From positions 1,587-65,586 of the IMG/VR virus record IMGVR_UViG_3300033463_000110: a DNA stretch of 64,000 bases; one strand, written 5' to 3'. This stretch comes from a virus (taxonomy: Duplodnaviria; Caudoviricetes). Position numbers and translations under genes: made by a program. Below are positions 1 to 64,000 of this stretch, piece after piece. The notes below the pieces were generated by a model. The model saw only the letters and a list, made by a program, of their open reading frames with translations. It made no database searches and had not been told where the DNA came from. Each line of letters starts with the position of its first letter. Position 1 is the first letter of the stretch.

Positions 1-2
1 TC

Positions 3-533
3 GTTCACAAGGGCGAGCTCGTCAAGAAGAACAAGTTTACTGGCGAGTACGTCTTTGACGAGGACAAGAAGGAGTCCGACGATGTTATCGGCTACATGGC
101 CTATATCAAACTCAACAACGGGTTTGAGAAGACGGTCTATTGGACCGTCGAAGAAGTTAAGGCCCACGCCCTACGATATTCGCAGACTTACAAGAAGGGC
201 TACGGTGTATGGAAGGACTCCTTTGACGCGATGGCGCTCAAGACCGTTCTCAAGAACCTTATCGTCAAGTATTGCCCGAAATCAGCAGAACTCCAGAAGG
301 CAATCGTGGACGACCAGACGGTGACGAACAAGGACAACGTTTCAACCTACGCCGACAACACCCCCGACGAGCAGCCGCAGGTCGAAGCCGCATCAGCGAA
401 GGAGAAGGCCGAGGCGGTGAAGGCACAGGTCGAAGCGACGAAGGCACGGCGCGGAAGCGCAAAGCCGGAAACCACGGTGGACAAGGAAACCGGGGAGGCC
501 CTTGATGACGATCTTCCGTTCGACAAGGAATAA
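3..533 (+). CDS. recT: RecT-family single-strand annealing protein (5' truncated by window)
   Basis: Frame is open from base 3. RecT-like C-terminal motifs (YWTVEEVKAHALRYSQTY, FDAMALKTV); adjacent to YqaJ exonuclease and SSB. Confidence 0.8.
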   Translation, partial: VHKGELVKKNKFTGEYVFDEDKKESDDVIGYMAYIKLNNGFEKTVYWTVEEVKAHALRYSQTYKKGYGVWKDSFDAMALKTVLKNLIVKYCPKSAELQKAIVDDQTVTNKDNVSTYADNTPDEQPQVEAASAKEKAEAVKAQVEATKARRGSAKPETTVDKETGEALDDDLPFDKE

Positions 534-538
534 CACCT

Positions 539-1471
539 ATGAAACCGATTATCATCAAGCCCAAGAGCCACGAAGATTGGCTCAAGGCAAGAGAAGCCGG
601 GGTGGGGGCATCGGAAGTGGCCGCCATCCTCGGCCTTTCCCCCTGGGAAACCCCCTTTTCCCTTTGGCTCAAGAAAACACACCAAGTTCCCCCGACCGAG
701 GAGACCGACGCCATGCGCCGGGGACACTACCTTGAAGATGCCGTGGTACAATGGTGGATGCACGAAACCGGGGAGCAAGTAATCAAGGCAAGCGCGGCTG
801 ATATTATCTACGTCCACCCCGATCACCCGTACATGAGAGTAACCCCGGACCGTATCGTGAAGGGACGCAAGAAAATCCTCGAAGTTAAGTCCACGGCAAT
901 CTCTATGGGCGAGACCATCCCGGATTACTACCTTGCACAAGTGACTTATCAAATGTACGTCACGGGCATCCATCAAGCGGAGCTAATCTACATTCAAGGC
1001 GGATTGACGTTCGGGCGGTTCATCGTCGAATATGACGAGGCGTTCGCGGAGTTTATTGCCGGGGAAGTCCAAAGGTTCTGGATTGAGAATGTTCTCGGCG
1101 GGAAGGAGCCCGACGCAATCAACGTCGCGGATTTGGCCGTAAAAGTCCCTAAATCGACGCCGGAGAAGTCAATCCAAGCCGACGATACCGCGCTTGCACA
1201 AATCGCCGAAATACGCGAAAAGAAGGCCCAATACGAGGCCCTGGGAAAAGAGATTGACTCCCTGCAAGATGCCCTGAAGTTATACATGACCGACTCCGAG
1301 GCAATCCTTGACGATACGGGCGCGACCCTTATTACCTGGAAATCCGGGAAGGACAAGACCACCTTCGACTCGAAGGCGTTTGCAAGCGATAACCCGGACA
1401 TGTACGCGAAGTATTGCCGCACCGTTCCGGGGGCGCGGACTTTCATTATCAAGAAACAAAAGGAGAAGTAA
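539..1471 (+). CDS. YqaJ-like viral recombinase exonuclease (lambda exo family)
   Basis: WLKAREAGVGASEVAAILGLSPW, TPDRI and LEVKS motifs; QVTYQM. Confidence 0.9.
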   Translation: MKPIIIKPKSHEDWLKAREAGVGASEVAAILGLSPWETPFSLWLKKTHQVPPTEETDAMRRGHYLEDAVVQWWMHETGEQVIKASAADIIYVHPDHPYMRVTPDRIVKGRKKILEVKSTAISMGETIPDYYLAQVTYQMYVTGIHQAELIYIQGGLTFGRFIVEYDEAFAEFIAGEVQRFWIENVLGGKEPDAINVADLAVKVPKSTPEKSIQADDTALAQIAEIREKKAQYEALGKEIDSLQDALKLYMTDSEAILDDTGATLITWKSGKDKTTFDSKAFASDNPDMYAKYCRTVPGARTFIIKKQKEK

Positions 1472-1472
1472 A

Positions 1473-1865
1473 ATGGCAGCATTGAACAGAGTAATGCTTA
1501 TCGGGCTGGTCGGCGGCGAGCCGGAGGCCCGCGAAGTGAACGGTGCAAAAGTGGTGACGTTCAGCGTCGCCACGACGGAGTATTTCAAGGACCGCAACGG
1601 GGAGGGAAAGGAACAGACGGAGTGGCACAAGGTCGTCGCGTGGAGACATACGGCGGACTATGCCGAAAGGGTGATCCACAAGGGATCGCAAATCTACGTC
1701 GAAGGGAAACTTCACACCCGGAAATGGACCGACCGGAACGGGGCGGAGAAGTACTCGACGGAGATAAGCGCGGACGACATCAAGGTCCTGGGGCGGAAGG
1801 CCGCCGACACGAACTCCGGCACAAGCACTAACAATATTGGCGCCTACGATGAGTCGCCGTTTTAA
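1473..1865 (+). CDS. ssb: single-stranded DNA-binding protein
   Basis: LNRVMLIGLVG, TEWHKVVAW, KGSQIYVEGKLHTRKW, acidic C-terminus ending PF. Start moved to ATG 1473 just after the upstream stop. Confidence 0.95.
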   Translation: MAALNRVMLIGLVGGEPEAREVNGAKVVTFSVATTEYFKDRNGEGKEQTEWHKVVAWRHTADYAERVIHKGSQIYVEGKLHTRKWTDRNGAEKYSTEISADDIKVLGRKAADTNSGTSTNNIGAYDESPF

Positions 1866-1873
1866 TACTACAC

Positions 1874-2881
1874 ATGCAATACGGCCTCCCATACAAGGGT
1901 TCAAAGACCAAGATTGCCGACGCAATCATTGAGCATCTCCCCCCGGCGAAAGTCCTTTACGACCTCTTTGCCGGGGGGTGTGCTATCACACACGCGGCCA
2001 TCCTTTCCGGTAAATGGAAGAAGATTGTAGCAAACGACATAAAGCCATACCCTGCCCTTTTTCGTGATGCCGCTCTTGGCAAGTACCAGAACGAGTACAA
2101 ATGGGTGAGCCGCGAGGAGTTCTTCGCAAGTGATGACCCTTTCGACAAGCTCATCTTCTCGTTCGGGAACGATTGCCGGACATACATCTACGGCGCGGAC
2201 ATCGAGCCGTGGAAGAAAGCCCTTCACTATGCCGTTTGCTTTCACGACTACGAGCCCATGCTGAAACTGTCCGGCAAGGACCTGTCCCCGATTGACTCAT
2301 GCAAGACGATGTATCAGCGACGTATCCGGGCCTACCAACTCCTCGGCGGAAAGCATGGCTGGTGGGAGGGCAAGGGGGTACACCTGGAAAACCTTGAACG
2401 GCTTGAACGTCTGCAAAATCTTATAAGCCTTGAACGCTTGCAGAACCTTGAACGGCTTGAACGCTTGCAGAACCTTGAACGGCTTGAACGCTTGCAGAAC
2501 CTTGAACGGCTTGAACGCTTGCAGAACCTTGAACGTCTTGAACGTCTGCAAAATCTCGACAGGCTGGAGGTGCGTCAAGGCAACTACTTCGACATTGAGA
2601 TTGACCCGGACTCGGTTATCTATCTCGATCCGCCCTACGCGAACACGAACGGCTACGGGACGAAACATAAATCCGACTTCGACTCGGAAAGGCTCTACGA
2701 TTGGATTGAGGCGCAATCCGTACCGGTCTATATCTCGGAATACGACATGCCGCGCGATCGGTTCGAGTGTATCTACGAGACGAAAGTGAACTCGCTTATC
2801 AACGCCGACCGTCCTACCGTGGCGACGGAAAGGCTCTTTGTCCCGAAAGGGCGACATTACCATAAAACGACTTTATTCTAA
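1874..2881 (+). CDS. orphan DNA adenine methyltransferase (Dam/D12-like) with internal tandem repeat
   Basis: LPYKGSK, DLFAGGCA (motif I), YLDPPY (motif IV). Confidence 0.88.
   Translation: MQYGLPYKGSKTKIADAIIEHLPPAKVLYDLFAGGCAITHAAILSGKWKKIVANDIKPYPALFRDAALGKYQNEYKWVSREEFFASDDPFDKLIFSFGNDCRTYIYGADIEPWKKALHYAVCFHDYEPMLKLSGKDLSPIDSCKTMYQRRIRAYQLLGGKHGWWEGKGVHLENLERLERLQNLISLERLQNLERLERLQNLERLERLQNLERLERLQNLERLERLQNLDRLEVRQGNYFDIEIDPDSVIYLDPPYANTNGYGTKHKSDFDSERLYDWIEAQSVPVYISEYDMPRDRFECIYETKVNSLINADRPTVATERLFVPKGRHYHKTTLF
2393..2554 (+). repeat. in-frame 27-nt tandem repeat encoding LERLERLQN
   Basis: CTTGAACGGCTTGAACGCTTGCAGAAC is exact at 2447, 2474 and 2501, with degenerate copies at 2393, 2429 (partial) and 2528. 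Confidence 0.95.
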
Positions 2882-2895
2882 ACGACTTTATTCTA

Positions 2896-3645
2896 ATGGA
2901 AACGACAAGCGCTGTCTATCGTGGCGATTGCATTGAGTGGTTGGAGGCGTATGACGGCGCACCAATCAAGCTCATTGTTACCGATCCGCCGTACACTCTT
3001 CCTTCTTGGTCCGGCGGCGGTTTTATGGACGAGTCAAAACGGGATTGGATAAGGGAGATGGACGTGGATAACTTGAGCCGTGGGTATTCCATCGAACGGT
3101 TCGCCGAACTCGCGGAGAAGGTGCAAGGTGGGAAAATCAACGTGTATTTCTTCTGCAACAAACTACAAATCCCCGACTATTTCCGGGCCTATGTAGAGCA
3201 ACGGAAATGCAAGTTTGACATTCTCATGTGGCACAAGACAAACGCCATGCCCACCTTCCACGGGAAGTACCTGACCGATACGGAGTACATCCTCTATTTC
3301 CGAAATGGGGGGGGGTGCAATCCAAAGACCTATGACGATGCAAAGACCTTCTGGCTTGCGGACATCAACCTCGCGGACAAAAAGAAATGGAAACACCCGA
3401 CGATCAAACCGCTTTCTATCGTGCGGACGCTTATACGCAATTCAAGCGAGCCTGGCGACATTGTTGCCGATCCATTCCTCGGAAGTGGCACGACGCGGGT
3501 TGCCGCCTTTTTTGAGGGGCGGAACTTCCTGGGTTGCGAACTCGATGAACGGTGGTTTTCGGTTCAAGAAGAAAGGTTCAAAAAAGAGTGTCACGGGGTG
3601 GAAGTGGTGAACGAGCATACCATTACCCAACAGACTCTCTTTTAG
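2896..3645 (+). CDS. orphan beta-class N6-adenine/N4-cytosine DNA methyltransferase
   Basis: TDPPY near the N-terminus, HPTIKP, and DPFLGSGTT (motif I) near the C-terminus. Confidence 0.9.
   Translation: METTSAVYRGDCIEWLEAYDGAPIKLIVTDPPYTLPSWSGGGFMDESKRDWIREMDVDNLSRGYSIERFAELAEKVQGGKINVYFFCNKLQIPDYFRAYVEQRKCKFDILMWHKTNAMPTFHGKYLTDTEYILYFRNGGGCNPKTYDDAKTFWLADINLADKKKWKHPTIKPLSIVRTLIRNSSEPGDIVADPFLGSGTTRVAAFFEGRNFLGCELDERWFSVQEERFKKECHGVEVVNEHTITQQTLF
3307..3315 (+). repeat. G9 homopolymer inside the beta-class MTase (currently in frame)
   Basis: AAT GGG GGG GGG TGC encodes NGGGC. Confidence 0.9.
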
Positions 3646-46868: not shown

Positions 46869-47424
46869 CTCGCGCATGCGCTCGCCAGCGTGTTACGATA
46901 CGCGTGGGTGCGAGTATTACAAGATATAATATATCTAATCACTTTCTTTTTTTGAGAGTACACTAAGAGATGATAAACCGAGAGAGATAAATCTCTCTCT
47001 GCCAACTTTTCTTTTTTTGTTTTGGACGTTAAAACTACAAAATGCTATATCTTGCAAAAACGCCCTTTTAAGACGCTTTCTCCTCGCAAGACGATAAATC
47101 CCTCGTCCAATGTGAGAAAACGCGCCAAAACGCCTTAAAACGCCCAAAGAAACGAAATCACGACAACGAGTCAAAACCGTCAAGCGAAATGACAACGAAA
47201 TCACGCTTAAAGCATGGTAAATAAAAAAATTTAGTAAGGGGCGAAGGGGACAAAGAAAAAAAAGAAAAACAAAAAGTTTGAGAGGACACACCCCGCCCGT
47301 CGTTCGCCCCTACTTTCCCCCCCGCCCCCCCCGCTCAGCCCGTCGCTCGTGAGTCGTTTTTCGGTCCCGTCCCGGCGCCCGTTCCGTCGGTTACATTATA
47401 CCCTATATTGTAACCTTTTCCGGG

Positions 47425-52337: not shown

Positions 52338-52442
52338 AAGCGAAAAGCAAAGGAGCGGGGGGGGGTATCCCTTCCAGACGGAAAAAGGGGGCGGGGGCCT
52401 GGTAAGCGCCCGCCCCCTCAAAAATCTAAAATTTAATGAGTT

Positions 52443-55473: not shown

Positions 55474-56304
55474 ATGAGAACACTACAGGAAGCCATCAAC
55501 AAGATGGAAAACCGGGGAGGGGCTGGCGCCTCGCTCCGCAAGCATTTCGCATCCGTCGGCATCCGCGAGTGGGGCGACATCAACCGCGCCGCGCTTTACG
55601 ACTTCGCCGACCACCTCCGCGACTCCGTTGCGCCCGGCACCGCAAAGACCATCTGTGCATACGCAAAAAGCCTGTTCCACCGCTACGAGGATGACGTGAA
55701 ACTCCCGGCGGGATGGGAGGGCATCCTCCAGGCGAAGGGGGACCGGACGCGGGGAACCTACCTCACCCCGGCGGAACTGAAACAACTCGAAGCCGTCGAA
55801 ACGAAATCCGACACCGAACGGATCGTCCTCGTCGAGGCCCTTATCGAAGCCTACACGGGGGCGCGTATTAGCGACGTGCAGACGTTCACGGAGGAGAACT
55901 TCCGCGACGGGTTCCTTACCTACACCTCCCAAAAGACAAAAGTCACGGCCACCATTCCCGTAAGCGAAAAGACGCGGGGGTGGATACGGTACGCACAGGA
56001 ACACCGGGCGGACGAGCCTACCCTCATGAGCCGCAACCGCATCATCCGCCGCCTTTGCAAGCGGGCCGGTATCGACGCGCCCGTAAAGACGCGCCGGGGC
56101 GGGGTGGAACGGGTCACGCCGAAATGGGAGGCGGCATCGAGCCATGCGTTCCGCCGTTCGGCGGCATCCAACCTTATCGCGGCGGGGGCATCCCTCAACG
56201 ACGCGAAACTCTGCCTCGGCCACACCTCCACGGCCATGACCGAGCGCTATGTGGTCTGCACACGCCCGAACCTTTCCGCGAAGGCGATGGCGTATTTCAT
56301 GTGA
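55474..56304 (+). CDS. tyrosine recombinase lacking an arm-binding domain (276 aa)
   Basis: YTGARISD (R), QKT (K), HAFRR, LGHTS...ERY; starts at GAGTTATG. Confidence 0.9.
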   Translation: MRTLQEAINKMENRGGAGASLRKHFASVGIREWGDINRAALYDFADHLRDSVAPGTAKTICAYAKSLFHRYEDDVKLPAGWEGILQAKGDRTRGTYLTPAELKQLEAVETKSDTERIVLVEALIEAYTGARISDVQTFTEENFRDGFLTYTSQKTKVTATIPVSEKTRGWIRYAQEHRADEPTLMSRNRIIRRLCKRAGIDAPVKTRRGGVERVTPKWEAASSHAFRRSAASNLIAAGASLNDAKLCLGHTSTAMTERYVVCTRPNLSAKAMAYFM

Positions 56305-57030: not shown

Positions 57031-58182
57031 CTATTTGAAAAAATCCGCGCCCGACAATCTCTCCACCGCCTGTTCCTTTGAAATCCGAAGGTATCTTTCA
57101 AATGCAGAAATGCTCTTGTGCCCCGATGCGAACATACAATCCCGGACTGGTACGCCGGAAAGGTAAAGGGCGGTCAATGCGGAGCGCCTGAATGTGTGGC
57201 TCTGCACCATTTCCCAGCGGTAGGTGGGCGATCCGTCCTTCTTCCTCCTGGACTTCGGAAGTTCCACAACGCCGTCTATCCCGGACTCCCTCGCAATCGT
57301 CTTGATATACCGGTTGAAGACAACCTGGTTCACCTCCGGGGCTTTCCCGCCGTTGCGCTCCAGCAGAAGAACAAGACGGGGGGATGCCGGGAGTACAACC
57401 TTGTCGTCCGTCTTTTTCTGCACAAACTCCAGCTTGCCGTCCCGAATGTTGTCCGTGGTCAGACGTGAGTAGTCGGAGAACCTGGCGGCGGAGTAGTAGC
57501 CGACGAGGGCGAGGTCGCGTACCTTCCCGTACAACTCGTTTCGTGGGTTGTATTGCCACAACAGTTCAATCTCGTCGGCGGTCAGCGCGATTGCCTCCGT
57601 CTGTTCCTTCTTTGATTGGAACTCCCGGAAATCCTGGTTGGTGTGGTATTTCAACTTGTACCCTTCGTGCATGACGACCTTGAGCCTCGCGCCGATGTTC
57701 CACCGGTAGTTCACCGAATAACCTTCGTCCTCCATTTTCCTTTGGAGGCGAAACCAATAGGCGGAGTCTATCCCGTCCCAATTCTCTTTCCGGCCCATGA
57801 GCCTTGCCACAACCCTGACGGCAAGGGCGCGTTGCCTCTGCGACGATGACGGCCTGTTTCCCCAACTCTCAAAGTATTCCCAGAAGGTCGGGACGTGGCC
57901 CGCCCGCACCACCTTCGTTTCATCGCCAGTGACGGCGTAGTGGATTGCGTTAAGAACGTCCTCCTCGGTACGGGCGGACACCTCCCTTTCGGTCAAACGG
58001 GAGTGGATGGTAAGCAAATCGCGGAGTACGCGGCGGTCCTTGCATTTCGCCTTGATGGACTTCGCGCCGGAGTCCCACAGGGCTGGGTCGGTCGTGAGTC
58101 CGGTCGCTTTCCGATACTGCTTTCCGTTATGAGTGGCGGAAATTCGGATTGAATTTTTGTGGATTGTGAACGTGTGCTGCAT
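57031..58182 (-). CDS. phage integrase (tyrosine recombinase with arm-binding N-terminus)
   Basis: N-terminal QYRKATGLTTDPALWD, ARFSD, QKKT, HTFRR, SGHKS...ERY. Confidence 0.92.
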   Translation of the reverse strand: MQHTFTIHKNSIRISATHNGKQYRKATGLTTDPALWDSGAKSIKAKCKDRRVLRDLLTIHSRLTEREVSARTEEDVLNAIHYAVTGDETKVVRAGHVPTFWEYFESWGNRPSSSQRQRALAVRVVARLMGRKENWDGIDSAYWFRLQRKMEDEGYSVNYRWNIGARLKVVMHEGYKLKYHTNQDFREFQSKKEQTEAIALTADEIELLWQYNPRNELYGKVRDLALVGYYSAARFSDYSRLTTDNIRDGKLEFVQKKTDDKVVLPASPRLVLLLERNGGKAPEVNQVVFNRYIKTIARESGIDGVVELPKSRRKKDGSPTYRWEMVQSHTFRRSALTALYLSGVPVRDCMFASGHKSISAFERYLRISKEQAVERLSGADFFK

Positions 58183-61412: not shown

Positions 61413-62005
61413 CACCACCCAACAAGATCGTCCTGACCGAAGAACAGGTGGCGTGGCTGAAAGACAACTACGCCACCACACTCAATGACGCCATCCGCAA
61501 GCACCTCGGAATTAGTATGCGTACCCTCAACCGCTTCGCAAAGACACTCGGACTTTCCAAAGACCCCGTTACCATCGAAAGACTCCGGTGCGAAAGAATT
61601 GCCGTAGAAGCCCACAAACGCGCCCTCTTGGGGAAGTATAAGGCCCACCCGGAGAACGGCCTTAAAACAAGGTTTAAGACCGGCTACAAGGCGCGGGAAC
61701 GGTTCGGCGAGGAGAAGTTCGCGGAGATGCACCGGAAGACCGTGGAGACAAGGAGAAAGACCTACATCGAGGAACGGGCGAGGGTAACATTCGGACTCCC
61801 GCAACGGACGAGGATGCGGGTGACAAGGCAACCGAGGCAGAAGATATACCAGCGATATTATTTGAAGAAACTCGGCTATATCCTGGACGAAGCCAACAAC
61901 ATCGCCTATTGGACGGAAAGCACGACACGGGCCGTAAAACTGGAGGCGATGCCGAGAAAATATTACTCATTCAAACCCTATCAAGATGGATTGGAAATAC
62001 ACTAA
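61409..62005 (+). CDS. basic HTH-containing hypothetical protein
   Basis: IRKHLGISMRTLNRFAKTLGL. Confidence 0.7.
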   Translation: MTPPNKIVLTEEQVAWLKDNYATTLNDAIRKHLGISMRTLNRFAKTLGLSKDPVTIERLRCERIAVEAHKRALLGKYKAHPENGLKTRFKTGYKARERFGEEKFAEMHRKTVETRRKTYIEERARVTFGLPQRTRMRVTRQPRQKIYQRYYLKKLGYILDEANNIAYWTESTTRAVKLEAMPRKYYSFKPYQDGLEIH

Positions 62006-62687
62006 CGAAAACCCGCTGAAAGTGGTCACGCTCTGTTCAGGCTACGACTCGCAACTCATGGCCATCCGCAACCTCGGAATTCCCTATGAGTGCATCGGCT
62101 GGAGCGAGATTGACAAGTACGCGATCCGCGCCCACGATGCGGTGTTCCCCGAGATTGCAGACCGCAACCTGGGCGACATGACGAAGATTGATTGGAGCAA
62201 GGTTGAGGACTTCGACTTGCTCTTTTATTCCACACCCTGCACGGACTTTTCAAATGCCGGAAAACAGGCCGGTGGCGAGGAAGGCTCCGGCACCCGTTCG
62301 TCCATCCTCTGGTGGACGCGGTATGCAATCCTTGAAAAGAAACCGAAATACCTTATCATGGAGAACGTGAAGGCCCTCGTCTCCAGCAAGTTCATCACCC
62401 TTTTCCGTAAGTGGCTGGACGAGCTTACCTCCTACGGCTACACGAACTTCTGCCAGGTGCTGAACGCGAAGGACTACGGCATCCCGCAGAACCGCGAACG
62501 GATCTTCGTCGTTTCCATCCTCGGCGACGCCTGGTTCTCCTTTCCCCAGCCGCAGGAACTAAAACTCCGGCTCAAGGACATGCTTGAGGACAAGGTGGAC
62601 GAGAAGTACTACTTGCCACAAGACAAGGTAAACCAATTCATCGAACAGTTGGACGATGACAAGAAGGCTCTCATTGATTCCGATTAA
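61986..62687 (+). CDS. C5 cytosine methyltransferase catalytic core (motifs I-VIII only; split gene)
   Basis: TLCSGYDS (I), SEID (II), STPCTDFS (IV), MENV (VI), PQNRERIF (VIII). Stops just after KYYL; motifs IX-X are not in the window. Confidence 0.9.
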   Translation: MDWKYTNENPLKVVTLCSGYDSQLMAIRNLGIPYECIGWSEIDKYAIRAHDAVFPEIADRNLGDMTKIDWSKVEDFDLLFYSTPCTDFSNAGKQAGGEEGSGTRSSILWWTRYAILEKKPKYLIMENVKALVSSKFITLFRKWLDELTSYGYTNFCQVLNAKDYGIPQNRERIFVVSILGDAWFSFPQPQELKLRLKDMLEDKVDEKYYLPQDKVNQFIEQLDDDKKALIDSD

Positions 62688-62873
62688 CACGGATAGGGGG
62701 GGGTATGCAGAACGATTATAGCCGGATATTTCAAGATGGGTTTCACGAATTTCACTCGGGAGTTTCTCGGAAAGAAAGACGGCTTTACAAAGACCGGCGT
62801 ACTTGAAATATATGAAGATTGCATTTGCAAGCCGCAACCCGGAGAAGAACTACGGGAAGGCGGCATGGAGTGA
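62656..62873 (+). other. TRD-like module 1, out of frame at G8 (62696-62703); G9 restores the frame
   Basis: Restored: MTRRLSLIPINTDRGGVCRTIIAGYFKMGFTNF...TGVLEIYE...; paralogous to module 3. Confidence 0.7.
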
Positions 62874-62966
62874 GGTGGCCGGTACGATACTCGCGACCGA
62901 CTACAAGGCCCCCCCCTATGCCTGATTGTCTATGAAAAAGATAGTTCCGATAAACACGACTGCTGA
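62812..62966 (+). other. TRD-like module 2, out of frame at C8 (62909-62916); C9 restores the frame
   Basis: Restored: MKIAFASRNPEKNYGKAAWSEVAGTILATDYKAPPLCLIVYE... Confidence 0.65.
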
Positions 62967-63127
62967 CGGGTGCGCCTTCACCATCGTAACCAGATACGAA
63001 GGCCGGGCCTATCTCAAGTCCATGACTGGGGGGGGGGGGCGGGTATTACCCATGCACGGGAGTAATCGTAATTTATGATGGACGAGAGGATATTGAAAAT
63101 CAAATTTCCGAGGGAGAAACGGAGTGA
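62932..63127 (+). other. TRD-like module 3, out of frame at G12 (63028-63039); G11 restores the frame
   Basis: Restored: MKKIVPINTTADGCAFTIVTRYEG...GGYYPCTGVIVIYD... Confidence 0.7.
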
Positions 63128-63321
63128 CGGGCTTTCCGTCTATCCGTACAACTTCCTTCCGTATGCCCCCCCCCCGGAACTGCGCTTTCGACTCATACCG
63201 GGGGACGGTCGGCTTCGACGTATTCCCTTTTGCGGTCACGACCAGGATCTCCGCCAGCCAGGAGGTTTTCATAAAGGTATATGAGGATATGGACTATCCC
63301 GATGAAGGGCAAGGGGCATGA
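63075..63321 (+). other. TRD-like module 4, out of frame at C10 (63166-63175); C9 restores the frame
   Basis: Restored: ...PYAPPRNCAFDSYRGTVGFDVFPFAVTTRISASQEVFIKVYE... Confidence 0.65.
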
Positions 63322-63439
63322 GGTAACGGCGCGGAACATCGCGAAAGGCGAACCGCACGAACTTTCAAGGCCGCTTACCACGGACGAGTGGGACAACGCA
63401 TTACTGATTGAATATGGCGAGGATTCTCCCGACGCTTGA
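63281..63439 (+). CDS. TRD-like module 5 (in frame, no homopolymer)
   Basis: MRIWTIPMKGKG...LSRPLTTDEWDNALLIEYG... Confidence 0.6.
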   Translation: MRIWTIPMKGKGHEVTARNIAKGEPHELSRPLTTDEWDNALLIEYGEDSPDA

Positions 63440-63614
63440 GGCCATGCTTCTGGACGGCACGATCCCGATTAGGGGGGGGGCATGGATAGACATTTACAAC
63501 CACTCCGCGAACGGCGAGATAGCCGGGACGATCCACACGCGGATAAGTCACGGAAACTATTGGTATGTCACCGAACTTGAAGATACCGCAGGCGGTAAAG
63601 AAAGGCTACATTGA
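63414..63614 (+). CDS. TRD-like module 6 (in frame with G9 at 63472-63480)
   Basis: MARILPTL...IRGGAWIDIYNHSANGEIAGTIHTRISHGNYWYV... Confidence 0.7.
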   Translation: MARILPTLEAMLLDGTIPIRGGAWIDIYNHSANGEIAGTIHTRISHGNYWYVTELEDTAGGKERLH

Positions 63615-63766
63615 CTGCCCCCCCCCAAGGGGTTTTCGACTGGGCCTACCCGAAAAGCAAATTGAGGCGGGCGAGGGTGCAGGGGAACGGGAACATCTGC
63701 CCGGCCATCACCTGCTCGCCGGAACTGTATTACTATGAAGGAGTCGAAGAAAGGATTGATGTTTAA
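63565..63766 (+). other. TRD-like module 7, out of frame at C9 (63618-63626); C8 restores the frame
   Basis: Restored: MSPNLKIPQAVKKGYIDCPPQGVFDWAYPKSKLRRARVQGNGNICPAITCSPELYYYE... Confidence 0.75.
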
Positions 63767-63936
63767 GAGCCAGTTCGTGCCGGTATGGGGGGGGGCTTTA
63801 CTGCGATATCAGCAACAACCCGTCCTTCAAGTCTGGGGCGAAAGGATTGCCTGGTTTGTCCAGGGCAATCAAGGCCGAGATGCACGACGCAGCCGTGTGT
63901 GTAGAATATGAAACAAAGGAAAGGACTGATTTATAA
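63735..63936 (+). other. TRD-like module 8, out of frame at G9 (63787-63795); G8 restores the frame
   Basis: Restored: MKESKKGLMFKSQFVPVWGGLYCDISNNPSFKSG...LSRAIKAEMHDAAVCVEYE... Confidence 0.7.
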
Positions 63937-64000
63937 GGGCCGGTTCTGGCCACTCTGGGGGGGGGGGGGGGGGCAAAAAAAACAATTCCGACAACTTAAA
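63908..64000 (+). other. TRD-like module 9 (3' truncated) with G17 (63957-63973) and A8
   Basis: MKQRKGLIYKGRFWPLWGGG..., N-terminus paralogous to module 8. Phase cannot be judged. Confidence 0.55.

Follow-up and report, generated by a model that had tools for sequence, protein, structure and literature searches.

The multispecific cytosine-5 DNA methyltransferases (C5-MTases) of Bacillus phages are single polypeptides that carry tandem target-recognition domains (TRDs) of ~40-60 amino acids (aa) between motifs VIII and IX and are presumed to act in anti-restriction; M.SPRI, M.Phi3TI, M.Rho11sI and M.H2I are reportedly enzymes of this multispecific kind (Guenthert & Reiners 1987, Wilke et al. 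1988 and Lange et al. 1991, cited in PMC8936443). Phasevarions, known from bacterial chromosomes, have one switch per enzyme and mostly involve N6-adenine methyltransferases. That a C5-MTase can consist of two chains, and that fragments cut within the variable region can complement each other, is established as well (PMC3404938). Multispecific phage C5-MTases, split C5-MTases and homopolymer phase variation are known separately as ingredients, and full-text literature searches returned no description of free TRD minigenes or of switches acting on individual TRDs. Here we analyze a stretch of 64,000 nucleotides (nt; the window) from a virus of the Caudoviricetes, positions 1,587 to 65,586 of IMG/VR record IMGVR_UViG_3300033463_000110, which ends in a C5-MTase core followed by an array of overlapping minigenes. 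This locus is probably a disassembled multispecific C5-MTase, in which stand-alone TRD subunits, each with its own slipped-strand switch, would be translated one after another in a relay and operate in trans on a scaffold made of the core and a separate motif IX-X piece.

The complete array consists of the core, 13 overlapping mini open reading frames (mini-ORFs) of ~40-70 codons, named M1 to M13, and the IX-X piece. Homopolymer tracts of G or C, 8-17 nt long, are present in 12 of the 13 mini-ORFs. The remainder of the array sits in the first 990 bases of the same virus contig, referred to as L002. The features are as follows.

61986..62687, + strand: C5-MTase core (alpha), 233 aa, motifs I-VIII, match to PF00145 (E 5.8e-47), ending with a TAA 8 nt ahead of a G8 run
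62656..62873, + strand: TRD minigene M1, G8 at 62696-62703, off by one, needs +1 nt
62812..62966, + strand: TRD minigene M2, C8 at 62909-62916, off by one, needs +1 nt
62932..63127, + strand: TRD minigene M3, G12 at 63028-63039, off by one, needs -1 nt
63075..63321, + strand: TRD minigene M4, C10 at 63166-63175, off by one, needs -1 nt
63281..63439, + strand: TRD minigene M5, without a tract, intact
63414..63614, + strand: TRD minigene M6, G9 at 63472-63480, in frame
63565..63766, + strand: TRD minigene M7, C9 at 63618-63626, needs -1 nt
63735..63936, + strand: TRD minigene M8, G9 at 63787-63795, needs -1 nt, paralogue of M9 (family D1)
63908..64000, + strand: TRD minigene M9, 5' part, G17 at 63957-63973, needs -1 nt, with the rest in L002:1-108
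ATG at L002:87: TRD minigene M10, G9, needs +1 nt
ATG at L002:234: TRD minigene M11, G10, in frame
ATG at L002:373: TRD minigene M12, C8, needs +1 nt
ATG at L002:550: TRD minigene M13, G8, in frame, fused in frame to the IX-X piece
L002, Met at 688, stop at 985-987: motif IX-X piece (beta), with RIRKLTPREC and AGNSIVV, matching PF00145 positions 269-323

The core ORF covers positions 2-214 of the 324 positions in the PF00145 profile and corresponds to the N-terminal two thirds of a cytosine-5 DNA methyltransferase. Its translation shows PCTDFS with the catalytic Pro-Cys of motif IV, ENV of motif VI and QNRER of motif VIII (QxRxR), and it is 61-91% identical to the cores of 12 relatives. An initial annotation of the window had placed the truncation of the core after motif VIII, which agrees with the end of the PF00145 match at profile position 214. 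All nine module start codons and all eight tracts that it listed were reproduced at the same coordinates, as were the frame states (M1-4, M7 and M8 one base out, M6 in frame, M5 tractless, M9 cut) and the motifs common to modules 1/3, 4/6 and 8/9. The IX-X part that it expected beyond base 64000 was located at the contig start (L002:688-984). Over the whole array, M6, M11 and M13 are in frame, M1, M2, M10 and M12 need one additional base and M3, M4, M7, M8 and M9 need one base less, which leaves this genome with three in-frame and nine out-of-frame modules among the 12 with tracts. In the remaining 62.7 kb of the window there were just three further G/C runs of at least 8 nt, so the occurrence of eight tracts in 1.3 kb is not due to base composition.

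The end of the window is also the end of the 65,586-bp virus contig, and the array resumes at the contig start. Contig end and start overlap by 12 nt. When the two halves of M9 are joined, the product is 57% identical over both halves to module 10 of a related phage (L011), where it has the same neighbours. This overlap and this match indicate a circular or circularly permuted genome with an assembly that was broken at the G17 run.

Three-frame reading together with a parser revealed a common plan of the modules: each has its own ATG and a 5' part, then (in all but M5) a tract, then a 3' part ending in a hydrophobic residue followed by Tyr and Glu or Asp. The tracts fall on Gly or Pro codons. 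The ATG of the next module always lies one base inside the terminal Tyr codon of the preceding one, giving a junction consensus of T-ATG-A; a T precedes the ATG at 56, and an A follows it at 58, of 68 junctions from five phages. Sequence following the junction ATGs is A-rich and encodes Met-Lys-Lys-like starts. With at least two tandem TRDs between the core and the IX-X piece, the locus resembles multispecific C5-MTases of the SPR type, but it is not one polypeptide, as there is a +1 frame change with an ATG and a stop at every junction.

Several ways of reading the array as a continuous product were considered. Each junction adds a +1 frame change outside any homopolymer, so tract-length corrections cannot yield one long ORF, and the single continuous ORF that the initial annotation had named as the possible result of an assembly artefact is ruled out; the corrections also run both ways and tract lengths vary among samples. 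Readthrough of TGA by stop-codon reassignment is ruled out too, as the 5' halves become nonsense and the stops are a mixture of TAA, TAG and TGA. A polyprotein made by programmed +1 frameshifting at T-ATG-A is unlikely; 13 successive shifts would be needed, the ATG and A-rich start context are kept at every junction, and in a related array (L016) a stop follows directly after the junction. Of 59 modules, 41 have an open frame up to the junction TGA, versus 49% in control coding sequence (p about 0.001), a modest enrichment that is exploratory only and would fit a possible three-state design of the modules.

Evidence for the nature of the modules comes from profile searches, embedded homologues and alignments, which establish TRD identity for M1, M2, M3, M6, M7, M10 and M13. 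Searching 1.84 billion proteins with an M6-family profile gave 116 clusters, 65 of which are proteins of 80 aa or less. Members of this family also occur inside a complete C5-MTase of 344 aa (P0090, residues 235-282, immediately before motif IX) and in a 505-aa chain with five tandem TRDs (P0079, residues 225-273, immediately after motif VIII). Alignments of frame-restored M1, M2, M3, M7 and M10 to variable regions in long multi-TRD chains span the tracts, including M1 to P0016, M3 to P0028 (across the tract) and M7 to P0071, and validate the restored frames. M13 together with the IX-X piece aligns to residues 296-389 of the solved methyltransferase M.MpeI, with M13 aligning to the M.MpeI TRD. 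The suggestion in the initial annotation that the restored peptides would resemble TRDs is borne out by these matches.

No match to M4, M5, M8, M9, M11, M12 or M13 was found among 12 long chains, a set too small to be informative, and a Pfam search of the M5, M6 and M11 mini-proteins gave no match, as expected for a variable region. An AlphaFold 2 model of M6 reached a pLDDT of 79.8 from a 69-row alignment and contained only short secondary-structure elements; a Foldseek search with this model gave no fold match in the PDB. Judged from sequence, the modules are target-recognition domains, and each TRD is predicted to set its own target sequence. In more distant homologues, 5-7 TRDs of the families found here lie in tandem on a single chain; these are P0079 and a 618-aa chain with about seven TRDs and a 47% identical core in the isolate genome of Pumilibacter intestinalis (L097). 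TRD matches and single-chain homologues together lead us to read the array as a multispecific enzyme taken apart, and the single chains with tandem TRDs would represent its ancestry.

In this genome, the core and the in-frame M13-IX-X ORF (L002:550-987, 145 aa) constitute an alpha/beta pair similar to M.AquI. The comparison with M.AquI made in the initial annotation fits these outer pieces but not the free TRD modules. Seven relatives (L003, L004, L006, L007, L010, L011 and L013) have the last TRD, which abuts the IX-X piece, out of frame, the IX-X piece is a free-standing ORF in L009 and L014, and a Met immediately ahead of the motif IX arginines is kept in 12 of 14 loci; these observations imply action in trans. 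An A-rich stretch lies upstream of this Met, and stops in the other frames are usually 4-60 nt upstream of it. Strong purifying selection on all parts of the locus suggests that a working enzyme exists. For most relatives, this enzyme is predicted to assemble and be active only as a combination of the core, the IX-X piece and free TRDs in the ON state. Complex prediction for alpha, the IX-X piece and M6 gave a score of 0.02, with controls not run, which we take as evidence in neither direction on binding.

At least 14 related loci, from phages and prophages of the rumen or gut, have a tract array of 0.5-3 kb that separates core and IX-X piece, and the cores of relatives sharing this architecture are 53-91% identical. 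The number of tracts reaches 17 in L004 and 15 in L011. One of the arrays (L083) lies within a 268-kb contig of a metagenome-assembled genome of a rumen Bacteroidia and is read as a prophage, which gives a pointer to the group of hosts. Its IX-X ORF (L083:6374-6888) seems to start within motif IX, with TPREAFRLMG and no RIRK ahead, and may be a damaged copy.

Two other arrays, L016 with about 15 modules and L022 with five, consist of overlapping mini-ORFs that each end in Tyr-Glu-Asp-stop and are all intact; no homopolymer tracts were found in either array. Tract-free modules within tract-bearing arrays are likewise intact in 13 of 13 cases (p = 6e-7; five arrays fully and three partly parsed). 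These intact tractless modules and the 65 short clusters of the M6 family indicate that the mini-ORFs are real genes. Orthologues of M5 in L004, L005, L006, L007 and L011 have no tract and align without a break, while M7 orthologues have the tract elsewhere in the module or none. Tract-bearing phages have GGG-GGG or CCC-CCC codons where the L016 orthologues have mixed Gly codons or other residues. In one module family, two phages have a run of C, a third has G in place of C at that position, two more have a G-run ~20 codons further on, and L016 has no tract. Such orthologous modules, with tracts at different sites, of either base or absent, suggest that tracts were gained repeatedly.

Tract variation was judged from assembled contigs (Logan, metagenomes). 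One bovine-gut sample, possibly that from which the window itself originates, is represented by two Logan-assembled runs (X1 and X2), and these match six of the tract lengths in the window exactly. Contigs from two other studies (X3 and X4) have insertions or deletions at six of the eight tracts and nowhere else, except for one compensating pair. For M1, the G8 of the window is replaced by an in-frame G9 in X3, and the orthologue in L003 is also in frame with G9. For M2, the window has C8 and run X4 has both C9 and C10 (at 62908), in metagenome contigs for which strains and switching are indistinguishable. The M3 tract is G12 in the window, G8 in X3 and G6 in X4; M6 has G9 in the window versus G8 in X4; M7 has C9 versus C8 in X4 and C7 in X3; and M8 has G9 versus G8 in X4. 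The L011 orthologue of M4 is in frame with C8, and the window has C10. Tract lengths are therefore not uniform among samples, and several of the changes turn modules on or off. The assumption of the initial annotation that the tracts are variable agrees with these sample comparisons and with the related phages L003 and L011, in which orthologues carry other lengths, some of them in frame. An intragenic frame-setting homopolymer, in 12 of 13 modules, and length polymorphism between near-identical genomes with conserved flanks are two features that the array shares with simple sequence repeat contingency loci.

Selection on the modules was examined through the ratio of nonsynonymous to synonymous substitution (dN/dS). 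Values per module relative to L011 range from 0.00 to 0.29, including 0.12 for M2, 0.02 for M3 and 0.04 for M4, and purifying selection acts on the 5' as well as the 3' half of the modules. For modules that are OFF in the window phage and in L011 alike, dN/dS is still 0.15 (dN 0.19, dS 1.27), and this low value indicates that both halves are kept as coding sequence even then. No frameshift or stop outside a tract was found in 68 modules. The three possible frame states are present at 20:20:19 over 59 tract-bearing modules from eight assemblies.

The following mechanism would account for these observations. A multispecific C5-MTase would be split into alpha (motifs I-VIII), 13 TRD mini-proteins of ~40-70 aa and beta (motifs IX-X), the last starting from the Met before RIRKLTP. 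The array would be read as a relay of termination and re-initiation at the overlapping ATGs. Slipped-strand changes in tract length, of which the length differences between samples may be the outcome, would shift the 3' half of a module among three frames and thereby toggle only its own TRD, leaving its neighbours and the IX-X piece unaffected. TRDs in the ON state would dock in trans on the alpha-beta scaffold and confer one methylation specificity each. Sibling phages could then carry different patterns of 5-methylcytosine (5mC), and such patterns may hedge against both classical and methylation-dependent host restriction. The chances seem to us evenly balanced for the more specific proposal of a three-component C5-MTase in which free TRDs of ~50 aa are exchangeable specificity subunits, 12 switches allow up to 2^12 methylation states per phage lineage and the T-ATG-A relay keeps downstream modules and the IX-X piece expressed in any state of the preceding modules. 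Free TRDs would then play the part among C5-MTases that HsdS plays in Type I systems. The overall reading of the initial annotation, independently switchable TRD modules on a split methyltransferase, is supported by this analysis, as none of the computed results refuted it.

Several points weigh against the disassembled, switchable enzyme and should be considered with its rivals. Differences between strains or sequencing errors in homopolymers could account for some of the variation between samples. A 1:1:1 distribution of frames is also expected if tract length is irrelevant, for example with slippage at the RNA level. To our knowledge, no C5-MTase made of three pieces has been described; binding of free TRDs to the core and activity of the pieces are properties that we infer from sequence. 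The join between contig end and start also depends on the 12-nt overlap plus homology and synteny. One alternative, which we regard as unlikely, is slippage or frameshifting on the G/C runs by RNA polymerase or the ribosome, which would give a fixed in-frame fraction with all TRDs always made at a low dose. Uniform frame states, as if DNA tract length were unselected, and strong purifying selection on OFF modules would both fit this explanation. However, tract lengths differ between samples at the DNA level, which means that heritable variation exists regardless, and the tract-free arrays L016 and L022 show that modules work without a slippage device. We know of efficient transcriptional slippage mainly from A/T runs. 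Slippage at the RNA or ribosome level may be an added contributor to module output.

An explanation by sequencing or assembly artefact, with the true tracts all in frame and the modules forming a constitutive kit of TRD minigenes, appears quite improbable. Long G/C homopolymers are indeed prone to errors, the contig is broken at G17 and tracts are frequent end points of Logan contigs. Yet the corrections needed go both ways, +1 in four modules and -1 in five, runs X1 and X2 reproduce six of the window tract lengths, and the three frame states are equally common across the eight assemblies, where systematic error would bias one way. Even less probable is a silent cassette library from which modules are copied or recombined into the site beside IX-X and only the last, fused TRD is used. 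The in-frame fusion of the last module to IX-X in this genome, two tyrosine recombinase genes about 5-6 kb upstream and related-phage contigs that skip or replace modules could be understood in this way, but each module begins with an ATG of its own, in an A-rich context, and finishes with its own stop, the array and its vicinity lack inverted repeats and long direct repeats, seven relatives have even their last module out of frame, and the junction frames forbid in-frame deletion products. We give hardly any credence to a decaying remnant of a single-chain multispecific enzyme, with modules as pseudogene fragments. The nine out-of-frame modules among the 12 with tracts and the existence of single-chain ancestors would agree with decay; dN/dS of 0.00-0.29 at a dS of about 1, the lack of frameshifts or stops outside tracts in 68 modules, the intact state of all 13 tract-free modules and an architecture kept across relatives with cores 53-91% identical do not.

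Comparison with L011 also revealed mosaicism. Identity between the two phages is only 67-68% for the core and for the IX-X piece, yet within the array (window 62812-64000 plus L002:1-690 versus L011:6828-9368) M3, M4, M6 and M11 are 94-100% identical in protein, with a dS of 0.28 for M11. This pattern suggests that phages exchange either TRD cassettes or the constant parts. Forms of intermediate structure were observed as well: beta chains with at least two tandem TRDs fused to IX-X and no catalytic core (L020:1005-1499; P0003, P0016, P0028, P0071 and P0082).

Two tyrosine recombinase genes (PF00589) were identified in the window at about 55759-56253 (+) and 57073-57585 (-), with 294 and 394 codons, which makes this rumen phage probably temperate. 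No inverted repeats linking these genes to the methyltransferase array were found. A shufflon or inverton is ruled out, given that the array and its surroundings have neither inverted nor long direct repeats. A second DNA methyltransferase gene (N6_N4_Mtase, PF01555, E 4e-26) is located at 2896-3645 (+) and has an in-frame G9 on Gly codons at 3307-3315; this gene may be phase-variable too. Directly downstream of IX-X (L002:993-3999, partly window 1-2414) are genes for a winged helix-turn-helix protein (PF14090), RecT (PF03837), a YqaJ exonuclease (PF09588) and a D12 N6-adenine methyltransferase (PF02086), and this neighbourhood brings three DNA methyltransferases within about 6 kb. An intergenic G9 at 52357-52365 and an intergenic pair of C7 and C8 at 47317-47332 are possible promoter-region tracts.

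If the proposed mechanism is correct, free TRD mini-proteins that program a shared scaffold would be a new quaternary design for C5-methyltransferases, and the locus would be the most combinatorial phase-variable epigenetic system described, in a phage and not in a bacterium. It would also explain how temperate rumen and gut phages cope with diverse restriction, including methylation-dependent systems that penalise constitutive multispecific methylation. The modules may prove useful as a natural library of small portable DNA-recognition elements for targeted 5mC writers. Gene callers split or miss such arrays and assemblers break at them, and the methylation potential of phages is consequently underestimated in viromes.

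Among the described systems, M.AquI, M.EcoHK31I and fragments of M.SssI share with this locus a I-VIII core and a IX-X part on separate polypeptides, and in M.EcoHK31I the small chain supplies part of the small domain in trans (PMC3404938). Those two-chain enzymes have one specificity, whereas here there would be up to 15 chains, with the TRD free of both partners in most modules. The hsdS invertons of Type I restriction-modification systems (PMC7672463) also combine a separate specificity subunit with a constant catalytic subunit and give a population with a mixture of specificities; they switch by recombinase inversion of half-genes, in contrast to the present array, which has no inverted repeats and belongs to another enzyme class with another switching mechanism. 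Phasevarions, such as the phase-variable Type III mod genes (PMC6902483), are similar in that intragenic repeat length shifts the frame and methylation is reversibly turned ON and OFF. Unlike phasevarions, the array would have 12 switches in one phage enzyme, and these would gate specificity modules and not the catalytic subunit. As in the Bacillus phage enzymes, several TRDs lie between motifs VIII and IX of one phage-encoded core. In those enzymes the TRDs are part of one chain and always present, whereas here they are separate overlapping ORFs, mostly switched by homopolymers, and the IX-X piece has a start of its own.

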